From: an uncultured Thermoanaerobaculia bacterium
GTDB lineage: Bacteria; Acidobacteriota; Thermoanaerobaculia; Thermoanaerobaculales; Sulfomarinibacteraceae
Assembly (NCBI GenBank): GCA_964641415.1
Contig: CAZXMW010000005.1
Coordinates: 14,760 to 78,759 of the forward strand
Reading direction: 5' to 3'
Length of the DNA: 64,000 nt
In this document: one piece after another, positions 1,324 through 56,407 of the stretch
Layout: the number at the start of each line of letters is the position of its first letter
Position numbering within the stretch: the first letter of the stretch is position 1
Position numbers and translations under genes: made by a program
Notes under the pieces: model-generated
Databases searched by the model: none
What the model was told of the DNA's origin: nothing
The model's input: only the letters and a program-made list of their open reading frames with translations

Positions 1324-1731
1324 GGGCACAGCCGGGACACATGCCAGGCCGCGAGGATCCAACCGAAGGAGGATGTCGTGGGAATCGACCGGGATGCGTC
1401 GATCGTCGGTGGTGTGGAGCAGGATTCGGTCCGGGATCGGTGCCATGGGCTGAGTGCACTCCGGTCGATCCAGCGGCTGAGCGGTCGATATCGCCGTTGA
1501 GCGGTCGTTCTGGCGGGGGAGTGGTTCTCGCGTTTTACCTTTTTGCGTCAGCGCCGGCTGCGACGATCGGGCATTCGAATCTCGGTTCTCGCGGTTTCGG
1601 GATTGTCAGAATCTTGGCAGAGGACAGACGCCGCGAGCGAGAGAACCTTTGTAGAGCCGACCGCGGCAAAGGTGCGGATTCCGGTCGACTGCGATATGAT
1701 CTCAGGCCCACATCAACTCAGGAGCAGAACG

Positions 1732-2304
1732 ATGAACATCACGGACATTCTCAACCAGGTCGGCGGTGTGCAGTCGATGGCACGCGAGCTCGGCATCTCG
1801 GAGAACCAGGCGCAGAGTGGCGCGGCGGCGCTGCTGCCCGCGATTCTCGGCGGCTTCAAGAAGCAGGCGCAGACGCAGCCGGCGGGTCTCGAGGGGCTCG
1901 GCGGCCTGCTCGGCCAGCTCGGAGGTGGCGGCCTGCTCGACTCGGTTCTGGCGCCGGAGCCCACCGACGTCGGCCGCGGCAACAACGTGCTCGGCCAGAT
2001 CTTCGGCTCGAAGGACGTCAGCCGGACCGTGGCCGGCAATGCGGCTGCGAGCACCGGGCTCGATGCCGGCGTGCTCAAGCAGATGCTGCCCATGCTCGCG
2101 ATGGCCGTGGCCGGATTCATGGCCAAGGGAGGCGCCTCCTCGGCCTCGCCGCAGTCGAAAGGCGGTGGCCTCGGAGGCATGCTCGGCGGGCTGCTCGGCG
2201 GCAGCGGCGGATCCTCGAGCGGCGTCTCCGGGCTCGCCTCCATGCTCGATCTCGACGGCGACGGCAACCCGCTCGACGATATTCTGAAGATGGTCGGCAG
2301 ATGA
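1732..2304 (+). CDS. DUF937 domain protein
   Basis: The product reads MNITDILNQVGGVQSMARELGISENQAQSGAAALLPAILGGFKK and has a Gly-rich C-terminus. An aggag RBS lies 7 nt upstream of ATG 1732. Confidence 0.7.
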   Translation: MNITDILNQVGGVQSMARELGISENQAQSGAAALLPAILGGFKKQAQTQPAGLEGLGGLLGQLGGGGLLDSVLAPEPTDVGRGNNVLGQIFGSKDVSRTVAGNAAASTGLDAGVLKQMLPMLAMAVAGFMAKGGASSASPQSKGGGLGGMLGGLLGGSGGSSSGVSGLASMLDLDGDGNPLDDILKMVGR

Positions 2305-2533
2305 CGCGACTCTCGAGCGGTTCGACGGGCGGCACGAGCCGTCTCAGACGATTTCGGCAACGAGCGCGCTGCGGACGCCGACGCCCTGCGGACCCGAACA
2401 TCGTTTGAGGGGGCAATCGACGAGCCTGGTCGCGGTGGATTGTGGGCGCGAACCGGCGCCGCCGTGGCGAGGCGGAACCGGAAACTCACTGCCGCCGCAT
2501 GGGAGAGGGAGAGGGCTCATCGGGCAAGGGGAC

Positions 2534-2617
2534 CGCCACGGCCACGGATGCGGATACGGCCACGGCCACGGCCACGGACACGGCCACGGCTACGGATACG
2601 GTCAAGGCCACGGCCAT
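2534..2617. repeat. Hexamer microsatellite array 1 (acggNN units: acggcc/acggat/acggac)
   Basis: About 14 tandem 6-nt units can be read directly in non-coding sequence. Confidence 0.85.
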
Positions 2618-2696
2618 GCGCTGCTCGGGCGCCGGCGGCCTTCCTGCTCGCCGGAGCGCACCCCGGAGATCGAGGACTGGGCTCGGTGAGTGCCCC

Positions 2697-2753
2697 CTTG
2701 AACATTGTGAGGAGCGCGATGTGAGCCGGGAGACGCTCGGCACAATGGTCAAG
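2697..2753. other. Imperfect hairpin in the unique core between the two hexamer arrays
   Basis: cttgaacattgtg (2697-2709) is complementary at 12 of 13 positions to cacaatggtcaag (2741-2753). There is an inner 5-bp pair gagcg/cgctc. Confidence 0.6.
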
Positions 2754-2840
2754 ACGGCACATCCGTCCCAAGGCGCCCGTTCCGGCCCTGGAGGGCGGCG
2801 GTCGCTTCGGCGCGCCCGTGGGGGGATCGAGGCGTATCGT

Positions 2841-3000
2841 GCGGATACGGCCACGGACACGGAGACGGATACGGAGACGGATACGGAGACGGATACGGAT
2901 ACGGCCACGGCCACGGATGCGGATACGGATACGGATACGGATACGGATACGGAGACGGATACGGATACGGATACGGACCCGGCCACGGCCACGGACCCGG
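2841..3000. repeat. Hexamer microsatellite array 2 (acggat/acggag/acggcc/acggac, about 26 units), same orientation as array 1
   Basis: The array can be read directly and it abuts the stop codon (3002-3004) of the minus-strand lipoprotein gene. Confidence 0.9.
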
Positions 3001-3001
3001 G

Positions 3002-4441
3002 CTACGAGAACGGCCGTCGGTTCAGAAAGACCCAATCGCCGTCGGCGATGTCGAGAATCTCGGTCTCGCTGTGGACAACGCTGCCGCTCGGGCCGAGGTA
3101 GTCGACGCGGAGCTCGTGTCGTCCCACCGGCAGGCGAAGCCGGGCCACCGACAGCCGGGCGGGCAGAGTCAGCCAGCAGCGGGTATCGGCGCGCTCGGTG
3201 AGGACGCCGAAGAGGTTGACCAGGACTCCGGCAGTGGCGTCCTCGTTGGCGGCCGCTTCGGTCGCGGCGTACTTGACCAGGCCGCGCAGAAAGGCCTTGA
3301 ACAGGATCTGGCCCATCTCGGCCTCGAGGGTCGCCTCGGCGCGCCGCGACAGGTCGTCCGCCGGCAGCGACTCGACGCCGGCGCCGCCGGCGGACAGCCG
3401 AACCGAGGCCACCGGGCCCGGGTCGGCCCTGCCCATGGTCGGGACCGCGACCGTCAGCCAGTACTCGATGTCGACATCGTAGGACCTGGTCCAGCCGGGA
3501 CCGGCGCGGTTGACCAGACCCCAGGCCCAGTCCTCGTTGGACGAGTAGCGGCGATCGATGTCGAGGATCGGGACGTTGAGCTTGACCTGGTCGCGGGGAG
3601 CGATCCAGCCCGACTCGAGGACGAAGACGACCTCGCCTCCGGGCTGCCGAGGTCCGGCCGCCGATGCCGGGAACAGAGCCGTGGCCGTGGCCGTGGCCCG
3701 CAGCTCCTCGACCTCGTCGCGGAAACCGAAGGTCAGCCCGACCCGCTCGAGATCACGGCCGAGATCGACAGGGGGCGCGATCCCGATGAGGTCGCGATGG
3801 GCGAGATAGGCGCGGGCTGCGTTGCGGTAGGCGACGAAGGCGTCGTTCGCCGCGCCTTCGGACTCGAAGATCATGCCGGAGAACCAGTGCAGAAAACCGC
3901 TGTCCTGCAGCTTGCGAGCGATCCTTCGATCGTCCGGCCGCTCGATCCCGCGGATCGTTGCCTCGACCGCGTCGGCAAGGGCGAGCGTCGCCTTGCGAGC
4001 CTCGACCTGGGCGGCGTCCGCGTCGCCGAGCGACAGATAGTTGAAGGCGCGGTAGAAGGGCGCCATGGCGAGCTCGAAGGGCTTGCCGCGGTAGTCGATG
4101 GTGAGGTCGTTGACGATCAGCGACGCGGCAGCCTGGGAGATGCTCCGGGTGTAGAGCTCGGCGGCCAGATCCTCGGCCGCCTGGAAGGCGGCGTTGGACT
4201 CGTCGAAGCGCCCCGCGTAGTGGAGAACGTGGCCGCGCTGGAGCAGCTCGAGCAGCCGGTCGCGGCCGCCCTGACGGGAGTCGATCCGGTCGAGGGCGTT
4301 CTGGTAGTCCCGGGCCTCGAGCATGGTGCGCAGCTCGAGGTTGGAGGCGACATAGCTCGCGCAGCCGGTCGTCAGCGAGACCGCCACGGCCAGGACGGGC
4401 GCGGCGGCCGCCATGGCGCGGCTCCTGACCCTTGGGTTCAT
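3002..4441 (-). CDS. Lipoprotein of unknown function, co-transcribed with lpoB
   Basis: A signal peptide ends in the lipobox LTTGC. The gene starts 8 nt downstream of the lpoB-like gene on the same strand. Confidence 0.7.
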   Translation of the reverse strand: MNPRVRSRAMAAAAPVLAVAVSLTTGCASYVASNLELRTMLEARDYQNALDRIDSRQGGRDRLLELLQRGHVLHYAGRFDESNAAFQAAEDLAAELYTRSISQAAASLIVNDLTIDYRGKPFELAMAPFYRAFNYLSLGDADAAQVEARKATLALADAVEATIRGIERPDDRRIARKLQDSGFLHWFSGMIFESEGAANDAFVAYRNAARAYLAHRDLIGIAPPVDLGRDLERVGLTFGFRDEVEELRATATATALFPASAAGPRQPGGEVVFVLESGWIAPRDQVKLNVPILDIDRRYSSNEDWAWGLVNRAGPGWTRSYDVDIEYWLTVAVPTMGRADPGPVASVRLSAGGAGVESLPADDLSRRAEATLEAEMGQILFKAFLRGLVKYAATEAAANEDATAGVLVNLFGVLTERADTRCWLTLPARLSVARLRLPVGRHELRVDYLGPSGSVVHSETEILDIADGDWVFLNRRPFS

Positions 4442-6266: not shown

Positions 6267-9200
6267 GTGGCAACGAACGTCCGTTTTCCAAGTGTCGCGA
6301 ACCGGCTCGTCTCGGTCCTCGTCGTGCTGTCGGTTGCAGGAGGGTCCGGCGCCGTGCGGGCGGCGCAGCCGGTGTTGGCCGAGTGCGACAGGATCGGTAC
6401 GACTGCCGCGGTGATCCAGCTGGTGCACGATTACGGCGACCTCTGTCTCGTGCGTGTCGTCGGCGAGCCGCCGATCGCGACCGCCCATCGCGTCCACCCG
6501 GTGGCGCCGGTCGGCGCCGTGGGCTTTCGTCACTGGAGCGGCACGACCGTCGACGCCGGCCTGCTGCCGGACGGCGCGCCGATCGTCCTTGGGCTCATCG
6601 GTCCGTTGGATCGAAGGTGGCGGGCCGAGCTGGAGGCGGCCGGGATCGAGATCCTGGCTCCGGCGCACCCGCACGCGCTGGTGATCCGCGGCGACCCCGC
6701 GGCCGCGGCGCGGGTCCTCGGGCTTGAAACCTCGGAGGGCCTGCCGGTCGTCGTGGGTGCCGCCGTGCTGCCCGCCGAAGCCCGGGTCCACCGGTCTCTG
6801 CTGCCGTTGGCGACCGGCTGGGATGCGGCCGACCGCCCCCGGTTGCGGGCGATCGGTTGGGACGGGAGACCGATTCCGGTCGAGACCAAAGACGCGGCGC
6901 CCGGTGGTCTCGCGCGGCTGCTCGACGAGCGCCCCGACATCGGCTACGTCGAGCCGGTGCTCGGTATCGAGCCCCACAACAACCTCGCAGGACGGTCCGA
7001 ACTGCTCGGCGCCGAGGAGCCGTGGAGCCTCGGCTTCGTGGGCGACGGGGTCACGGTGCTGCACAACGACTCGGGGGTGGATCTCGAGCATCCGGGGCTC
7101 GCGGGCGCGATCGTTGCCGCGGCCGGTCGCATGGAGTACTTCGACACGGCGCACGGGACCCACACCGCGGGGTCGATTGTCGGCCGGCCCGCGACGCCCG
7201 CGCCGGTCAACGCCTCGGGATGCGGCGACCTCGTGCCGGGTCTGGAGACGGCGTCCGGCATGGCGCCCGGCGCGGCCTTGGTCACCAATAACATCTTCAA
7301 CGGGGGCTTCGGGGAGATCCCCGAGATGATGGCCTGGGGCGCGGGTCGCGGGGCGCAGCTGAGCAACAACTCGTGGGGGCTGCTCGGGCAGACCGGTCCC
7401 GAGGTCGGCTACAGCGCCGCCGCGGCCGAGGTCGACGCGGCTGTCCGCGATGCGGATCCGGCGACCAGCGGAGACCAGCCGATGACGGTGTTCTTTTCGG
7501 CCGGCAACACCGGTCCCGATCCCGGTACGGTGACCTCTCCGGGAACGGCCAAGAACGCGATCACCGTCGGCGCGGTGCAGAACGCGCGCTGCGGGGCATG
7601 GGTGCCGGCTCAGCAGCCCGGCCCCGACCCGGAGGTGGTCGTCACGAGCTCGGGTCGCGGCCCGTCCCAACTGCGGATCAAGCCCGACCTGGTCGCCCCC
7701 GGCTCGGACGTGATGTCGCTTCAGTCGCAGGACGGTTATGCGATTCAGCTCTGGGACCTGGGCTGGACCGGGCCGCTGCTCGCCCTGAACACCGGCACCT
7801 CACAGGCGTGCGCTCTGGCCACCGGGGCCGGCGCTCTGCTGCACGAGATTCTCTGGAGACACGGCCGAAGCGGCCTGCGACCCAGCCCGGCCCTGCTCAA
7901 GGCGGCGCTGATCGCCACCGCCGATCGGCCGGGCGACGCCGTCGACTCCGACCGGGGCTGGGGCCGGATCGCGCTGTCGCCGGCGCCCACGACCGCCCTG
8001 CCGATCGTCGCGTTCGACCAGGGGGAGACGGCGCAGCTGGCAACCGGCGACCGATGGTCGACCGAAATCGCGGTGCGGTCCGCGGACCGCATCCTCGAGC
8101 TGGCGATGGTCTGGACCGACCCGCCCGGCGAGGCCGACGCCGACCACCCCCTCGTCAACGACCTCGACCTGTTGGTGACGATGCCGTCGGGCGCGGTGCT
8201 GCGCGGCAACGTCTTCGACGGCGGCTGGTCGCGGCCGGACCCGGGCGCGCTGCGCGACGGCGACAACAACGTCGAGGTGGTCCGGGTCGAGCAGCCCGAG
8301 GTCGGCAGCTGGACGGTCGAGGTGGTGGGGGTGGAGGTGGCGGTGCCGCCGGTCGGCCTCGACGGCCAGGACTTCGCCGTGGCAGCGGTCGGCGACGTCG
8401 GCGCCTGTGTCGACCAGCCGCTGCCGCCGGCGGCGGTTCAGGCGGCGCCGGCTGGCGACAACGCCATCGCGGTGACCTGGTCGCCGGTGTCGGGCGCCAC
8501 GCGGTACGAGGTGGCGCGCGCCATTCGTCCCGGCGGGCGCCCCTACCAGGTGGTCGCGACCATCGGCGGCGGGGTCACGTCGGTCGTGGACGCAGGGCTG
8601 TCGGGAGGCACGACCTACTACTACGTGGTGCGGGCCGAAGGGGAGTGCTGGTCGGCCGACTCGTACGAGGTGTCGGCAGCGGCCACCGGGCCGTGCACGA
8701 CGGTGCCCTTGTTCGCCGGCATCGCCTCGGTGACCGGCGTCCCGAGCGCCTCGTGCTCGCTGGAGCTCGCGTGGTCGCCGGCGACCGCCACCTGTCCCGC
8801 GCCTGTGAGCTACGACGTCTACCACGGTTCGACGCCCGACTTCGAGCCTTCCGAGACCAACCGGATCGTCGAGGGCCTGGACGCCGAGACCTGGCTCGAC
8901 CGTGGCCTCGAGCCCGACCGCGAGGCCTTCTACCTGGTTCGCGCGTCGCACGCCGGAAGCGGCGACGACGACGGCAACACCGTGCGGATCGGGGGCCGTC
9001 CCGTCGGACCGGACGAGGCCTACCTGGATCCGATCACCGCGGAGTTCCTGCACACCTGGAATCGCCTTCCCGGGTCCGCGGTCGACCCCGGATCCGAGCC
9101 GTGGCGCAGAACGGAAGATGACGCCTGGGACGGCCTTCGGTCCTGGTTCGTCGCGGACGAGCCCGGGGTCAAGGACCAGGTGCTGGAGCTGCGCGAGCCG

Positions 9201-14332: not shown

Positions 14333-16288
14333 ATGGCGTTCGGACACCCGAAGGGACTCTTCCCGCTGTTCTTCACCGAGATGTGGGAGCGACTGGCCTT
14401 CTACACCATGGTCGGCATCCTGCTCCTGTACACCATCGATGCGGAACGCGGGGGCCTCGGGTTGCCGCGGGCGCAGGGCAACGAGATCTACGGGCTGTAC
14501 CTGGCGTTCGTCTACTTCACGCCGTTTCTCGGCGGCATGATCGCCGACCGCTACCTCGGGTACCGTCGATCGGTGGCGATCGGCGGGCTGCTCATGGCGA
14601 GCGGACTGTTCATGATGGGCATCCCGGGCTACACCTTCTTCGTCATGGGCCTGATCGGCCTCATCGTCGGCAACGGCTTCTTCAAGCCCAACATCTCGGT
14701 GATGGTCGGCAACCTGTACGAGCCCGGTGACCCGAAGCGCGACTCGGGCTTCAACATCTTCTACATGGGGATCAACGTCGGCGCTCTCGCGGCGACGCTC
14801 ATCGTCGCCCCGATCGTGCGGAACTACTTCGGCTGGCTGTGGACCTTCCGTGCCGCCGGCATCGGCGTGCTGTTCGCGGTGGTGCTGCTGGCGATCTTCT
14901 GGCGGTCCCTGGCCAATGCCGACCGGCAGCCCGAGCGGAGCGCAGGCGACACCTCGATGGGCGAGATCTTCGGCAAGATCCTGGCGCCGGCGTTCATCGT
15001 CGGGTTCATCGGCTACTTCGCCGCCAAGCAGTTCGAGATGCAGCTGGTCCGGCCGTCGGACTTCGGTTTCCTGGTCGGGATGATCCCGGTGGTCATCTTC
15101 TTCGTCCGGCTCGGGCTCACCGCCAATGAGGAGGAGCGCCCCGGGCTGCTCGCCCTGCTGCCGATCTTCGTCGCCGGCGGCGCCTTCTTCATGATCCTCC
15201 ACCTCAACGGCAGCGCCATGACCCAGTGGGCGCGCGACTACACCGACCGCAGGCCGGGGGTCGCCGCCAGCGTCCCGCTGATCGGGCAGATTCAGCAGGA
15301 TGCCCTGCCCAGCTACTACCTCAACGCCGGTCAGGACGTGCCCCGGCCCCATCCCGACAGCCTGCTCGTGGTGGCCTCGTCGGAGATCGCCAACCAGTTC
15401 GGTCAGAGCCGGATGCGGGAGAGCGCGGTGGCGACCCTGGACGGCTTCGCCGGCATCTCCGTCGTGCGGGTCGGACCGAAGGGCTCGGGTCAGGACCTCG
15501 ACTCCGCCTGGCTGGACCGGGCGGTCAAGGTCTACCCCGACGACGAGGTCAATGTCCGGACCGAAACCGGTTCCCACGGCGAGAAAATCACCACCGTCGC
15601 GCTCGGTGACGGTGCGGTGCCGACCGGCCAGGTCGTGCTGCTCAGGGAGCTCTCGGACGGCGTCCGGATCCCGGTGTTCGTCGTCGACGAGGCGACCAGG
15701 GATGCCATCTACGGTGGCTTCATCGCGCGCTACGGCCGCCCGCCCGACTACTTGCCTCCAGGTCGCTTCCTGCAGGTCGTCAACGCCGAGGTCTACCAGA
15801 GCTGGAACCCGTTCTGGGTCATCTTCCTGACCCCGGTCGTGGTCTGGTTCTTCGGCTGGAGGCTCAAGCTCGGCAAGCCGGTACCGACCGCTCACAAGCT
15901 GCTCTACGGCATGCTGCTGACCACCGCCGCGCTGCTCATCATGGCGGTCGCGGGGTCCCAGACGGACGCCGGTGCGGTCAAGGTGGCCGGGTTGTGGATG
16001 GCGATCTTCTACCTGGTGATCACCCTCGGCGAGCTCTGTCTGTCACCGATCGGGCTGTCGTTGGTGACCAAGCTCGCGCCGCCCCGGCTGGTCGGTCTCG
16101 CGATGGGCGGATGGTTCCTGGCGACCTCGATCGGCAACAAGTTCTCGGGCTTTCTGGGTGCGGTCCAGAATCACATGGAGCCCATGTGGTTCTTCGTATT
16201 CCTGGCCGGGCTGGCGGCCGTGGTGGCGACCTTCATCTTTCTCGTGCTGCCCAGGCTCGACCGCGCAATCAAGAAGTACGGAGCATAG
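14333..16288 (+). CDS. Proton-dependent oligopeptide transporter (POT/PTR2 family)
   Basis: The N-terminus is GHPKGLFPLFFTEMWERLAFYTMVGILLLY, followed by FTPFLGGMIADRYLG (PTR2 signatures). An aaggag RBS lies 7 nt before the ATG. Confidence 0.85.
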   Translation: MAFGHPKGLFPLFFTEMWERLAFYTMVGILLLYTIDAERGGLGLPRAQGNEIYGLYLAFVYFTPFLGGMIADRYLGYRRSVAIGGLLMASGLFMMGIPGYTFFVMGLIGLIVGNGFFKPNISVMVGNLYEPGDPKRDSGFNIFYMGINVGALAATLIVAPIVRNYFGWLWTFRAAGIGVLFAVVLLAIFWRSLANADRQPERSAGDTSMGEIFGKILAPAFIVGFIGYFAAKQFEMQLVRPSDFGFLVGMIPVVIFFVRLGLTANEEERPGLLALLPIFVAGGAFFMILHLNGSAMTQWARDYTDRRPGVAASVPLIGQIQQDALPSYYLNAGQDVPRPHPDSLLVVASSEIANQFGQSRMRESAVATLDGFAGISVVRVGPKGSGQDLDSAWLDRAVKVYPDDEVNVRTETGSHGEKITTVALGDGAVPTGQVVLLRELSDGVRIPVFVVDEATRDAIYGGFIARYGRPPDYLPPGRFLQVVNAEVYQSWNPFWVIFLTPVVVWFFGWRLKLGKPVPTAHKLLYGMLLTTAALLIMAVAGSQTDAGAVKVAGLWMAIFYLVITLGELCLSPIGLSLVTKLAPPRLVGLAMGGWFLATSIGNKFSGFLGAVQNHMEPMWFFVFLAGLAAVVATFIFLVLPRLDRAIKKYGA

Positions 16289-16421
16289 TGTTGAGTTTTG
16301 AGTGTTTAGTTTTTAGTTCCATCGCACATGAGTCCTTTCGCGGTGGAATCACGCTGCGATGGAAACTCAAAACTAAACACTAAAAACTGAGAACTGAGAA
16401 CTGAGAACTGAGAACTGAGAA
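16289..16421. repeat. AT-rich imperfect inverted repeat with a ccatcgca/tgcgatgg clamp and (ctgagaa)x5 heptamer array. It fills the whole convergent intergenic gap.
   Basis: The left arm is gttgagttttgagtgtttagtttttagtt-ccatcgca and the 28-nt centre follows. The right arm is tgcgatgg-aaactcaaaactaaacactaaaaa plus five ctgagaa units (16387-16421). Confidence 0.85.
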
Positions 16422-16422
16422 C

Positions 16423-18363
16423 TCATTGGCTCTTGCCCTTGAGGCGGTCGAGCGCCCGGTGGAGGCGCCACGCCTTGGTGCGCTCCATGGCCCCGATCAG
16501 CGCACCGAGCCGCTCGATTTCGGCGTGCAACCGCTCGATCTCGGACGCTCGTTCGTCGCACGCGATCTGCAGGGCCGTCTCCCGCTCGCCGAGACTCTCG
16601 ACCTCCGTTCGAAGCTCCCCGATCAGCTGTTGGCGCTCGCCGATGGCGGCGTTGGCCGCGGCGAGGTCGGCGCCGTGCCGCCTGACCTCGGCGGTCAGGC
16701 GTTCGCGTTCGGCGCGCAATGCCTCGACCTCGCCGTTGAGGCGGTGAGAGGCGTCGGCCGCCGCCGCGTCGGCAGCGCGTACCTTCGCGATGTCGCGCCG
16801 CGCGGCGTTCGCCGCCTCGCCGGCGGTCACCGCCTCGGCGCGCAGGGTGTCGACGACCCGGGCGACGACCTCGGGCCCGATCAGGTCGGCGTGACGGCCG
16901 ATGACCGCCGCCTTGAGGCGAAGGAAGTCCGCCCGACGGCGGGGGCTCTCGCCGAGCACATGGTGAGCAGCGCCCCGAAAGTGCCGGTACTCGGCGGTGA
17001 CCCGAGGCAGGTGGTGGAACGGAACCAGCGCGGCGAGCCGGATCAGGAAGTCCCAGTCCTCGAAGAACTCGAGCTCGGGGTCGAAGGGTCCCGCCCGGCG
17101 CGCCAAGGACAGGTCCATGATCAGGGTGTTGAACGGAATGTAGTTGTCGACGAGGAGCAGCTCGGGGTCGAAGTCTCTGCTGTACGGAAGTCGTCGTTCG
17201 ACCTCGCTCCAGCCGCCCTCCGGGCCGAGCTCGTAGATGCCGACGGCGGCGTCGGTGTAGGCGACGCGGACGTCCGCCGCGGCCACCAGACCGACCAGGG
17301 TGGCGATGTGCTCGGGCTCGACGAGATCGTCGTCGTCGAGAAAGCAGAGATAGGCCCCGGTGGCCGCGTCGACCCCGGCGTTGGCGGCGGCGGCCCGGCC
17401 CAGGGTGCGGCCCGTTTCGACCCGGACGACCGGGAAGGGAAAGTCGGCCGGCACCGTGGGCTCGGCGCCGCCGTCGTTGACCAGGACGATCTCAAGCCGG
17501 CGGTAGCTGCTGGCGGAGAGACTTGCCAGAGCCTCGGCGAGCAGGTCCGGGCGGTCCTTGGTTCGGACGACGACGCTGACGGTCGGACCCGCGGTGTTTG
17601 CCGCGAGCTCGACCATTGCCCCGAGCCGACGTGCCAGCTCGGTCGGGCCCTGGGTCACGATGTCGTTCAGGCCGATCTCGCAGTAGGCCTCGGCGGCGAC
17701 GGTGCCGGTCGGCAGCGACAGTGCCCGGAATCGGCGCATCCCGAGGGCAGCCTCTCGGTAGTTGTGCAGCTCGAGTTGGCTCGCGTGGGCCTCGATGGCG
17801 GCTGCCAGCCGGTCGAGCTCGTCGCTGACGTCGATCAGCAGGTTGGGATAGCTCGGGTGGTTGACCTCATAGAGCAGAATCCGGCACCCGGCCATGATCT
17901 CGTCGAGCTCGGTGCCGCCGCGCAGGGAGGTCAGGGCGAGATGGAGGGCAGTGAAGGCCGCCCGGTGATCGGTGGTGATCTCGCAGGGCGACACCGACAG
18001 AATGAGGTCAGGACGAACGTCGCGGATCGCTCCGGAGGCCGTTTCGGCGGCGGTGTCCACCCAGGCGGCGAGCTCACCGTCAGGGATCGACAGGACCTCC
18101 ATCCGGGAGATGCCCAGGACGCCGAGTCCCTGTCGGGCCTCGGCGCGGCGGCGCGCCCCATAACCCTCTCGGTCGGTGGTGACCTCGCTGCCCCCCGACG
18201 AATCGGTCAGGTAGACGATGCGGATGTCGGCGCCCCGGTCGGCGAGCTGGACGAGCAGACCGCCGCAGCCGAGGACCTCGTCGTCGAAGTGTGGGGCGAG
18301 CACCAGCACGCGTCGGGCGCCGACCGTCGTCGTGGTCGTCGGGGGCATCGGGTCGAGCTGCAT
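16423..18363 (-). CDS. Fusion protein: PIG-L/LmbE-type deacetylase, GT2 glycosyltransferase and a C-terminal coiled coil
   Basis: The PIG-L part reads VLVLAPHFDDEVLGCGG. The GT2 part reads VSVVVRTKDRPDLL...VLVNDGG ... FLDDDD. A heptad-rich tail is present. ATG 18363 precedes the PIG-L domain. Confidence 0.8.
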   Translation of the reverse strand: MQLDPMPPTTTTTVGARRVLVLAPHFDDEVLGCGGLLVQLADRGADIRIVYLTDSSGGSEVTTDREGYGARRRAEARQGLGVLGISRMEVLSIPDGELAAWVDTAAETASGAIRDVRPDLILSVSPCEITTDHRAAFTALHLALTSLRGGTELDEIMAGCRILLYEVNHPSYPNLLIDVSDELDRLAAAIEAHASQLELHNYREAALGMRRFRALSLPTGTVAAEAYCEIGLNDIVTQGPTELARRLGAMVELAANTAGPTVSVVVRTKDRPDLLAEALASLSASSYRRLEIVLVNDGGAEPTVPADFPFPVVRVETGRTLGRAAAANAGVDAATGAYLCFLDDDDLVEPEHIATLVGLVAAADVRVAYTDAAVGIYELGPEGGWSEVERRLPYSRDFDPELLLVDNYIPFNTLIMDLSLARRAGPFDPELEFFEDWDFLIRLAALVPFHHLPRVTAEYRHFRGAAHHVLGESPRRRADFLRLKAAVIGRHADLIGPEVVARVVDTLRAEAVTAGEAANAARRDIAKVRAADAAAADASHRLNGEVEALRAERERLTAEVRRHGADLAAANAAIGERQQLIGELRTEVESLGERETALQIACDERASEIERLHAEIERLGALIGAMERTKAWRLHRALDRLKGKSQ

Positions 18364-54889: not shown

Positions 54890-56407
54890 TCACTCTCCGA
54901 AGGTTTCGACGTGCCGCTCGTGCGCTCGTTCGAGCCACGGGCGCCAGGTTCGGGACGCGCGGAGCAGCTCGCTCACCTTGACCGGTCGCAGCCGGCGACG
55001 GGTGAGCTCCTGGACGAATCGCGGCAGGTCGGACCACGGCGGCTCCTCGCGCTCGGTCGCCAGGTGCATCAGGACGATGCCTCCTTCGAGCCGTGGAAAC
55101 GCGAGCAGCCGGTCGACCATCCGGCGCGAGTTTCGGTACAGGCGCGAGTGCTCGTCGGCGATCCAGTCAAGGGAGTCCAGCGACGCGCCTTCGAGCGAGC
55201 TCCAGCGGACGTGCAGGTACCCGAGTTCCATGCCCCACTGACGCAGCTCGGAGTTCTCTTCGCCGTACGGTGCGCGCCACAGCGGCACCATGGCACGACC
55301 GGTGGCCTTGCGAAAGGCGATCTCTGTCTGTCGCAGCTGGTCATGCAGCATGGCCCGCGTCACACCAGGGAGAGTGCGGTGGCGGCGGTCGTCCGCCCAG
55401 CTCGTCAGGTGCGGGTGTGAGTAGGTGTGACTGCCGACCTCATGGCCGGCGAGCACGGCCTGACGGACCAGAGTCGGGTACCGCTCGACGAAACGGCCGG
55501 TGACGAAGAGCGTAATCTGCAAATCAAGACGTTGCAGCAGATCGAGAAGCTCCGCGGTGCCGTTGGAGGACCCGTCGCCGTCGAAGGTGACGGCGATTCG
55601 AGGTCCGGCGTCGGTGACCAGGTGGAGCACCGGCGGCGACGGACCGCGCGACCTCGACCGGGTCGCCGCACCGTCGCGAATCGCCGTCGGCAGCCGATCT
55701 CGGGCAGGAGGCGCCGTGGCGGTCGGTCGTCGGGTCTCTGTCGGCGTCGTTGTCGGCGTCTCTGTCGGCGTCATTGTCGGTGTCTCGGTTGCGGTTGCAC
55801 TGGCGGTCTGCGTCGGGGACGAGGTTGCGGTTGCCGTCGGAGTCGAGGTCGCCGTCGGTGTTTCGGTCGGCAGAGGCGGGATCGTCTCCGGGGCCTCGGC
55901 GAACGAGGCGATGGCGAGCTCGGCGCCGGGATCGATCTCGAGATCGTCGACGAGCGCTTCGCCCCGACGATCCAGGGTCACGATCCTCACCGGACGCCCA
56001 TCGGCGATCAGAACCGCTTGAGAGTCCGGAGTGCCCCGGACGCGGACTGTGGGCCGGTCGCTGCCGCGCACCAGCTCGGCGACGGCGTGCGGCCCTTCGG
56101 CGAGTCCGGGTGCGTGCCGAATCTCGACCATCCAGCCGGCGAGCACGACACCGATCCAGGAGCTCGCGGCCAGCAGGCTGACGGCGACCACGATGGTTGC
56201 CCAAGGCCGGGGAACGCGTCGTCGGAGCCCGGTCCGACCGGTCGCGGCGAGGCGTGCTCCGAGGTCATGGAGTCGGCATCTCCAACCGCAGTAGGCGTAA
56301 CCGCTCCTCAGCTCGACGCAGCGGTCGCACAGCCACTTTCCGCAGCCGCGACACCGGACCTCGGCCTCGCGCGACGGGTGGTTCGCACAGCGCGAGATCA
56401 CCCGCAT
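54890..56407 (-). CDS. Polysaccharide deacetylase (NodB homology) with N-terminal zinc ribbon, TM helix and Pro/Thr-rich linker
   Basis: The zinc ribbon is C..H...E..C..CG...C..C. The linker is TPTATSTPTATATSSPTQTASATATETPTMTPTETPTTTPTE. The NodB part reads VTFDGDG...TLFVTG...GHEVGSHTYSHPHL. Confidence 0.8.
   Translation of the reverse strand: MRVISRCANHPSREAEVRCRGCGKWLCDRCVELRSGYAYCGWRCRLHDLGARLAATGRTGLRRRVPRPWATIVVAVSLLAASSWIGVVLAGWMVEIRHAPGLAEGPHAVAELVRGSDRPTVRVRGTPDSQAVLIADGRPVRIVTLDRRGEALVDDLEIDPGAELAIASFAEAPETIPPLPTETPTATSTPTATATSSPTQTASATATETPTMTPTETPTTTPTETRRPTATAPPARDRLPTAIRDGAATRSRSRGPSPPVLHLVTDAGPRIAVTFDGDGSSNGTAELLDLLQRLDLQITLFVTGRFVERYPTLVRQAVLAGHEVGSHTYSHPHLTSWADDRRHRTLPGVTRAMLHDQLRQTEIAFRKATGRAMVPLWRAPYGEENSELRQWGMELGYLHVRWSSLEGASLDSLDWIADEHSRLYRNSRRMVDRLLAFPRLEGGIVLMHLATEREEPPWSDLPRFVQELTRRRLRPVKVSELLRASRTWRPWLERAHERHVETFGE

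Follow-up and report, generated by a model that had tools for sequence, protein, structure and literature searches.

What occupies the gap between two convergent genes in an uncultured Thermoanaerobaculia bacterium (family Sulfomarinibacteraceae of the Acidobacteriota), in which two long arrays of the hexamer ACGGNN flank a core that contains a hairpin, is the question raised by a stretch of 64,000 nucleotides from that organism (GenBank assembly GCA_964641415.1, contig CAZXMW010000005.1, positions 14,760 to 78,759), referred to below as the window. An original prediction, made from the letters of the window, had described the arrays and a short inverted repeat between them, and had grouped the locus with two others nearby into a single family of elements. 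The reading favoured here, to which a probability of roughly 45% is assigned, is that the core would represent a single copy of a stem-loop element, conserved and non-coding, of approximately 140 to 165 nt, that this element may act as an RNA hairpin at the 3' ends of genes (in termination or in 3'-end protection) and may have spread in the manner of repetitive extragenic palindromic (REP) or miniature inverted-repeat transposable (MITE) elements, and that the arrays would be microsatellites grown at its edges.

The gap is bordered on its left by a DUF937 gene on the plus strand (approximately 1732-2304, with its stop codon at 2302-2304, according to the list of open reading frames and Pfam PF06078), and on its right by a gene for a 479-residue protein on the minus strand (3002-4441, with its TAG stop codon at 3002-3004, according to the same list and to orthologues). 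Between them lie a left array of 14 units, mostly ACGGCC (2532-2615), a core of 225 bp, and a right array of 26 units, mostly ACGGAT (2841-2996); both arrays were delimited by Tandem Repeats Finder, by in-register reading and by a pattern scan, and both read ACGGNN on the plus strand, in direct orientation. The main copy of the element spans 2636-2772 and would function on the minus strand. Read on that strand, the stop codon of the 479-residue gene is followed in turn by the right array, 68 nt, the element, a further 20 nt and the left array.

Conservation of the core in other genomes was established through a query that concatenated its three open translations, on the premise that gene callers elsewhere also call spurious reading frames. 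Searched exhaustively with phmmer, a set of 1.84 billion protein representatives yielded only three matches (P0001, P0002 and P0003), all of them spurious: P0001 corresponds to a minus-strand frame at 47 of 60 residues without a gap (window approximately 2627-2806), P0002 to a plus-strand frame at 37 of 49 residues (window 2637-2783), and P0003 to that same plus-strand frame. Because these matches fall in different frames and on different strands, the conservation is at the level of nucleotides. P0001 and P0002, from two NCBI contigs (18,419 and 64,913 nt, respectively), are known by translation only, exact-protein look-ups with these two and with three proteins of the window having recovered no contig, and DNA was compared for P0003, which is carried by two JGI metagenome contigs (L137 and L138; GC 0.62) that are identical over 16.5 kb; the comparison thus covers two distinct DNA sequences of the element. 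Window positions 2636-2772 and L137 positions 8311-8442 are 86% identical over approximately 137 nt, and the gene neighbourhood in L137 has nothing in common with that in the window. The original proposal of a recurring element is therefore upheld to the extent that the core is found in other genomes and is not unique to this one.

A covariance model (R1) built from the window and L137 sequences scored the main copy at 159 bits and recovered no other strong copy in the 200 kb searched. The core matches no described RNA or protein family: Rfam 15 yielded nothing in the gap at its gathering thresholds or at E values up to 10 (the best score within 2250-3100 had E >4, and a tRNA-Thr was the only Rfam score in the window), and the three remaining frames of the core, taken from both the window and L137, likewise gave no match when searched against proteins. 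The gap had no BLASTN match in phage and plasmid collections, and an exact 20-mer of a hairpin arm had none in viral contigs.

The composition and substitutions of the core indicate that it is non-coding. GC content across its codon positions is flat, at 0.69-0.73 in every frame, and the neighbouring real genes display values of approximately 0.7, 0.5 and 0.9 at positions one, two and three. Within a gapless block of 96 nt, the 18 differences between the window and L137 are spread over the codon positions as 7/5/6, and the core accordingly carries no coding signature. Three long reading frames that cross it resemble the artefacts common to high-GC DNA, and Pfam and NCBIfam returned only low-complexity noise for the frames across the gap; the earlier dismissal of these frames as artefacts was thus sound.

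At the centre of the element is a hairpin (2690-2760), recovered by inverted-repeat search and by folding, whose arms (2690-2716 and 2734-2760) form an imperfect inverted repeat of 27 nt with 81% complementarity around a variable 17-nt loop; the 13-nt inverted repeat of the original prediction is real and constitutes the middle of this longer one. Folded as RNA, the window hairpin reaches -42.2 kcal/mol (z -4.2) on the minus strand and -39.9 kcal/mol (z -2.6) on the plus strand, and the corresponding values for L137 are -42.6 kcal/mol (z -2.9) and -36.6 kcal/mol (z -1.3). Several of the stem pairs are G-U pairs on the minus strand, and this better folding with G-U pairs points to a single-stranded form, probably RNA, that is read on that strand. 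Each of the 36 base pairs in the consensus structure is retained in the window as well as in L137, two of them through changes on both sides, a pattern suggestive of covariation. The 18 differences noted above are clustered in the loop and spare the stem, and the translations of P0001 and P0002 likewise imply conserved arms and a scrambled loop. A Thr-to-Asn substitution in P0001 would, by inference, convert the internal mismatch of the window hairpin into a Watson-Crick pair. The L137 element is followed by a perfect 22-bp hairpin.

Every copy for which DNA is available lies just downstream of a gene and in the orientation of that gene. The L137 element begins 27 nt past the stop codon of mfd and follows the mfd orientation, and the main copy in the window is located 3' of the 479-residue gene. 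That gene is preceded by one for LpoB, with which it forms a conserved pair; its product has no family assignment in Pfam or NCBIfam, and its orthologues terminate at the same residues. On the opposite side of the gap, what may be another, diverged copy (2324-2461, plus strand), in the opposite orientation to the main one, begins 20 nt past the DUF937 stop codon. Model R1 scored it at 19.1 bits (E 0.22 over 200 kb and 0.00086 within the gap), and it shares the best-conserved blocks of the element, ACG.GCCGTCT and GAGGGGGCAATCG.CGAGCC; its plus strand folds at -53.9 kcal/mol as against -46.2 kcal/mol for the other strand, with a z of only -1.07. This sequence may, on weak grounds, be regarded as a diverged copy of the element, and if the match is real then each of the two convergent genes would be followed by a copy of its own.

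These observations bear directly on a neutral explanation, according to which the core would have no function, being a fragment that is in decay or was transferred recently, and the arrays would be ordinary microsatellites adjoining it by chance. The very low copy number of the element and the lack of a match to known RNA families are in keeping with such an origin, as are 16 orthologous LpoB/479-residue loci from genomes and metagenomes (63-83% protein identity, placing the source of the window in the Acidobacteriota, the nearest being Thermoanaerobaculales/Holophagae-type metagenome-assembled genomes at up to 83%), none of which displays arrays, core or a DUF937 gene downstream, where synteny ends. 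Two genomes that differ in GC content (70% and 62%) and in the surroundings of the element nevertheless share 86% identity across 137 nt, which is hard to reconcile with debris in the absence of constraint or of a very recent transfer; the loop has taken most of the substitutions and the stem has been spared, and every copy with DNA has the same orientation with respect to the gene upstream of it. A purely neutral origin is for these reasons considered unlikely.

If the element is indeed a gene-end hairpin, its manner of action can be compared with that of known terminators. Like an intrinsic terminator, it is a GC-rich stem-loop found soon after a stop codon and in the orientation of the gene; it differs in possessing no U-tract, an unusually long stem (approximately 25 pairs), a 17-nt loop, and conservation that extends into its flanks. 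Canonical terminators composed of a hairpin and U-tract are not enriched in the window, with five found in its first 20 kb where 6.1 would be expected, and the role proposed for the element would be set against that background, in which such terminators are no commoner than chance.

A Rho-dependent terminator has also to be weighed, in which Rho would load at the right array (as a rut site) and the polymerase would pause at the hairpin, and slippage of the array would tune termination. The predictor RhoTermPredict looks for a 78-nt window with a C/G ratio above 1 and C residues at regular intervals, after which a hairpin comes within 150 nt (PMC6407284). Transcribed from the minus strand, the right array becomes (NNCCGU)n, a C-rich and weakly structured RNA whose C/G ratio in 78-nt windows is 1.5-2.27 (reaching the top 0.5% of the window), with a C-rich dinucleotide every 6 nt and a fully open centroid structure (z +1.8), and the hairpin lies approximately 70 nt downstream. 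The array and hairpin therefore resemble the terminators described in that work (C in excess of G, regular C residues, a weakly structured stretch after the stop codon, and a hairpin within 150 nt), and the scarcity of canonical terminators in the window speaks in favour of such a mechanism. The resemblance is tempered by several differences: the 17-nt loop falls outside the 4-8 nt of the predictor, whose false-positive rate is high; many other minus-strand windows have a similar C/G ratio as a consequence of general strand skew; and the rut-like stretch is here a pure tandem repeat. The left array, moreover, is not C-rich in either sense (C/G 0.93), and the L137 copy has no array at all, with merely 27 nt between stop codon and element. 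Rho-dependent termination driven by the array is on this evidence an unlikely explanation of the locus.

The arrays themselves are observed directly and are as the original prediction described them, real and in the same orientation. Tandem Repeats Finder reported period-6 arrays at 2535-2616 (13.7 copies, 80% matches) and at 2842-2977/2995 (22.7 copies, 86%), and a scan for three ACGGNN units followed by ACGG, with no more than one mismatch, gave 33 matches, all of them within the two arrays and on the plus strand, where shuffled sequences would be expected to give 0.01. With head-to-tail units of at most 6 nt present far above chance they are hexanucleotide microsatellites, the exact numbers of units being possibly unreliable if the source is a short-read assembly. 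The right array, which contains ACGGCC, ACGGAG, ACGGAC and GCGGAT in addition to ACGGAT, ends 0-5 nt from the TAG of the 479-residue gene, in agreement with the earlier statement that it abuts a stop codon. The two arrays share types of unit as well as a 16-nt block, GCGGATACGGCCACGG, and are on that account related by descent. As hairpin formers they were set aside: only the plus strand of the right array, folded as DNA, surpassed its shuffles (z -4.1).

The content of the arrays differs strongly between copies of the element, with 14 and 26 units in the window, at least 7 and at least 18 in the two NCBI contigs, and none beside the L137 element, a pattern that fits the earlier suggestion that the arrays are prone to slippage. 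On the flank that corresponds to the right array, at a distance of approximately 20 codons from the core, P0001 reads TVSVSVSVAVSESVA, which decodes in its S/A/T-V frame as NNCCGT, the complement of ACGGNN; on the flank that corresponds to the left array, and directly adjoining the core, P0002 reads RMRLRSRKRPRT...RIRIRS, which decodes in its R-X frame as CGG-NNA, that is, as ACGGNN. At the place of the left array, L137 possesses the loop of its second hairpin, with a single ACGGCC followed by GGCCATG that aligns to the last units of the left array; a lone ACGGCC in that position is the pattern expected if arrays grow out of a seed. A separate observation on the 18,419-nt contig of P0001 is that direct repeats of approximately 100 nt (AAGRSGFHRAAMP.GDAGPRSP.GEGGPEGR in translation) bracket its array and core, with a partial third copy further upstream; these could represent a duplicated target or another family of repeats.

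ACGGNN repeats are also found away from the element. Three tandem ACGGCC units lie within the 479-residue gene (window 3677-3694, minus strand), where they encode TATATA and where the closest orthologue, L002, reads RATAPALF; the hexamer has apparently expanded inside this coding region. In L137, an array of 10 units (15875-15940, minus strand), with CC, GC, AT and GT variants arranged in blocks, lies directly upstream of a gene for an IscS-like aminotransferase or within its possible N-terminal extension; it is in frame as Thr-Ala/Gly/Asp, and its Gly-X frame has stops on both sides. Such arrays are not oriented in the same way with respect to genes from one case to another, and this argues against the arrays themselves having a general role at the level of RNA.

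The pattern of variation within the units nonetheless invites comparison with arrays of binding sites, in which a conserved ACGG (or CCGU) and a free 2-nt spacer would be recognized by an oligomeric DNA- or RNA-binding protein. Across the three arrays with DNA, positions 1-4 are almost invariant and positions 5-6 take at least eight states, with further states implied by the translation of P0002, and arrays recur beside the element in three genomes. Parallels exist in ribbon-helix-helix proteins on plasmid centromeres and in TRAP, which binds spaced triplets. Ribbon-helix-helix arrays such as TP228 parH (PMC3130281) and pSM19035 parS (PMC9499535) consist of a short conserved box and a variable spacer, and sometimes form two blocks around a core, as is the case here; they differ in their period (7-8 nt rather than 6), and the present arrays are chromosomal, with neighbours (DUF937, the 479-residue protein and LpoB) among which no partition genes were seen. 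Searches with Pfam identified no partition or ribbon-helix-helix gene next to the locus, ACGGNN arrays can point either way with respect to genes and one even lies within coding sequence, the bias of variation towards positions 5-6 is only suggestive (p ~0.003-0.07 by our rough binomial estimate), and the L137 copy is without arrays. That the arrays serve as binding sites thus appears quite improbable. A related idea, that the arrays act as a sponge for CsrA, was considered on the strength of ACGGAU, which we take to resemble the core site of CsrA/RsmE, and was not adopted: the antisense strand of the element would be needed, the left array has no GGA, and no CsrA-like gene was found in the window.

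A further alternative is that the arrays encode dipeptide repeats, or are what is left of sequence that did so, either (Gly-Tyr/His/Asp)n as in small phage proteins or (Thr-Ala/Asp/Glu)n as in linkers. A scan for seven ACGGNN units in IMG/VR identified more than 120 viral contigs (L017-L136) that carry such arrays, nearly all of them within small bounded reading frames of the GGN-NAC type that encode (Gly-[Tyr/Asp/Asn/Ser/His])n. Many of these are tandem paralogues in the same orientation (for example, L096 4229-4450 and 4715-4987) whose N and C termini bear short conserved tags, a conserved C-terminal domain of approximately 150 residues is fused to some of them (L043, L048, L065, L070 and L119), and no Pfam or PHROG family covers them. 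The Gly-X frame would account for the variable NN as the third base of a Gly codon followed by the first base of an NAC codon, and the Thr-X frame is open across the whole gap (as a reading frame at 2442-3101), in a genome in which Thr-rich linkers occur in real proteins. One such linker is encoded at window 55722-55869, where repeats of period 6, 12 and 24 form a Thr/Pro-rich segment (TETPTATSTPTATATSSPT...) of a 505-residue protein (minus strand, 54890-56407).

The window arrays differ from the viral ones in that neither is contained in a bounded reading frame of this kind. Read as Gly-X they give GHGCGYGHGH... and GYGHGHGDGYGDGYG...; in that frame the right array lacks a start codon and meets no stop within 1.4 kb, three stops interrupt the core, and the only start available to the left array is a TTG 130 nt upstream. 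The Thr-X reading frame overlaps the convergent gene by 100 nt and crosses the core, with its non-coding patterns of substitution and GC content. In addition, GGA, GAT, GTA and ATA are in our assessment poor codons for a genome of 70% GC, the L137 array is bracketed by stops in the Gly-X frame, and no Pfam, NCBIfam or PHROG family was matched beyond low-complexity noise. Translation of the window arrays is unlikely, with at most a decayed remnant of coding sequence present, and an explanation of the locus through dipeptide-repeat proteins is accorded very little probability.

With these alternatives set out, the favoured interpretation of the core as a mobile gene-end hairpin can be compared with the systems that it most resembles. 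REP elements and their mosaic combinations (BIME), ERIC sequences and MITE-like elements are imperfect palindromes of tens to approximately 130 nt, intergenic and often found between convergent genes or in 3' untranslated regions; they are conserved at non-syntenic places and are thought to act as RNA stem-loops at 3' ends. The present element is likewise an intergenic imperfect palindrome conserved in non-syntenic places; it differs in its very low copy number so far, in the lack of terminal inverted repeats or a target duplication, in its flanks of hexamer microsatellites, and in having no known transposase. In this interpretation, the RNA hairpin at the 3' end of the 479-residue gene (and possibly its diverged counterpart 3' of the convergent DUF937 gene) would either end transcription or protect the 3' end of the transcript; the element would have spread between genomes as a small REP/MITE-like element; and the arrays, untranslated here and of probable common ancestry, would have arisen by replication slippage from ACGGCC-type seeds at both edges of the element.

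Several observations weigh against this interpretation: (i) the copy number looks low for REP or MITE elements, with a single clear example in 64 kb and no example in the 110 kb taken from 16 relatives; (ii) inspection of the ends of the core revealed no terminal inverted repeats and no target-site duplication; (iii) the hairpin is not followed by a U-tract, and the terminator scan found 0 sites within 2200-3200; (iv) the covariation is not statistically significant with two DNA sequences, being equalled in 118 of 500 shuffles; (v) the second copy in the gap is a weak match; and (vi) the variation at unit positions 5-6 around a nearly invariant ACGG, together with the presence of arrays beside the element in three genomes, hints that the sequence itself has some specific role, for which slippage alone would not account.

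A more elaborate version of the gene-end interpretation would treat arrays and hairpin together as one mobile module, in which the arrays form platforms of tunable length for Rho or for an oligomeric binder as yet unknown; in the same proposal, slippage would make termination or 3'-end stability heritably variable, so that the locus would act as a 'contingency terminator'. Contingency loci built on simple sequence repeats are long, nearly pure arrays of short period that are prone to slippage, and the arrays here are of that kind; they differ in lying at the 3' ends of convergent genes rather than in a promoter or reading frame, and in presenting no obvious on/off switch. This combined module is judged rather improbable.

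The original prediction had gone further in placing the locus in one family with two others (1-610 and 16287-16423), each copy being endowed with a private unit of 8, 7 or 6 nt. In the first of these (locus 1), a GxxExxY / PD-(D/E)XK gene (147-551) lies between perfectly inverted 8-mer arrays, CGCAGAGG x4 at 3-33 and CCTCTGCG x4 at 556-587, accompanied by degenerate CCATCGCA-type repeats at 34-130 and by TGCGATGG at 590-610; the order is A-B-gene-A'-B' rather than a simple nesting, and the left end may be cut by the edge of the window. The other (locus 3), situated between convergent genes, is a gene-less relative of the first; its heptamer arrays are inverted and enclose a ccatcgca...tgcgatgg hairpin (RNA z -5.0). 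Short tandem arrays together with a hairpin are present, in intergenic DNA of the same genome, at each of the three loci, and L137 carries, in addition to the homologue of the core, an element at approximately 16050-16200 (minus strand) of the form CGCAGAG..CCATCGCA..TCGCGATG..CTCTGCG; the element family of loci 1 and 3 is therefore common to both lineages, and the two types co-occur.

The likeness of the present locus to the GxxExxY cassette and its gene-less miniature ends there. Inverted arrays and the CCATCGCA/TGCGATGG inner repeat characterize loci 1 and 3, in some cases together with a PD-(D/E)XK gene; none of these components is present at the target locus, where the arrays are direct and the core is unrelated. 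CCATCGCA is over-represented in the window and clusters only at loci 1 and 3, with no occurrence in 2300-3100. Nor is the repeat unit private to each copy, since ACGGNN also flanks copies of the element in other genomes. From these sequence features, loci 1 and 3 form one family and the target is a different element that shares only a general theme with them, and the single-family model is left with scarcely any probability. The viral-contig search contained no relatives of the GxxExxY gene. In a Gemmatimonadetes metagenome-assembled genome (L005, 7220-7295), a stop codon is directly followed by a hairpin that consists of (AGTGCCT)x4 and (AGGCACT)x4, and hairpins with arms of tandem heptamers therefore occur in another phylum too.

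Two further features in the vicinity deserve mention. Three direct repeats of 20 nt (CGGTCGAT.c.gc.g.TGAG) at window 1462-1521, between the tRNA-Thr gene (1205-1279) and the DUF937 start (approximately 1732), may constitute a regulatory site. An integration site associated with that tRNA was considered for the gap and rejected, the 13-nt tRNA match at 3012-3024 lying in conserved coding sequence and being judged a chance occurrence.

The significance of the locus depends upon which of these readings holds. If the core is no more than a low-copy mobile hairpin beside neutral microsatellites, its interest is modest and mostly a matter of annotation, in that reading frames recorded across the element in public databases are spurious. 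If it instead belongs to a true family of RNA hairpins at 3' ends, Acidobacteriota-like bacteria would gain a structured non-coding element not described before, in lineages in which transcription termination is poorly understood and, in the window, canonical terminators are rare. The repeated association with ACGG-NN is unusual, and would offer a system in which to ask whether the length of a 3' repeat affects termination or the stability of messenger RNA.

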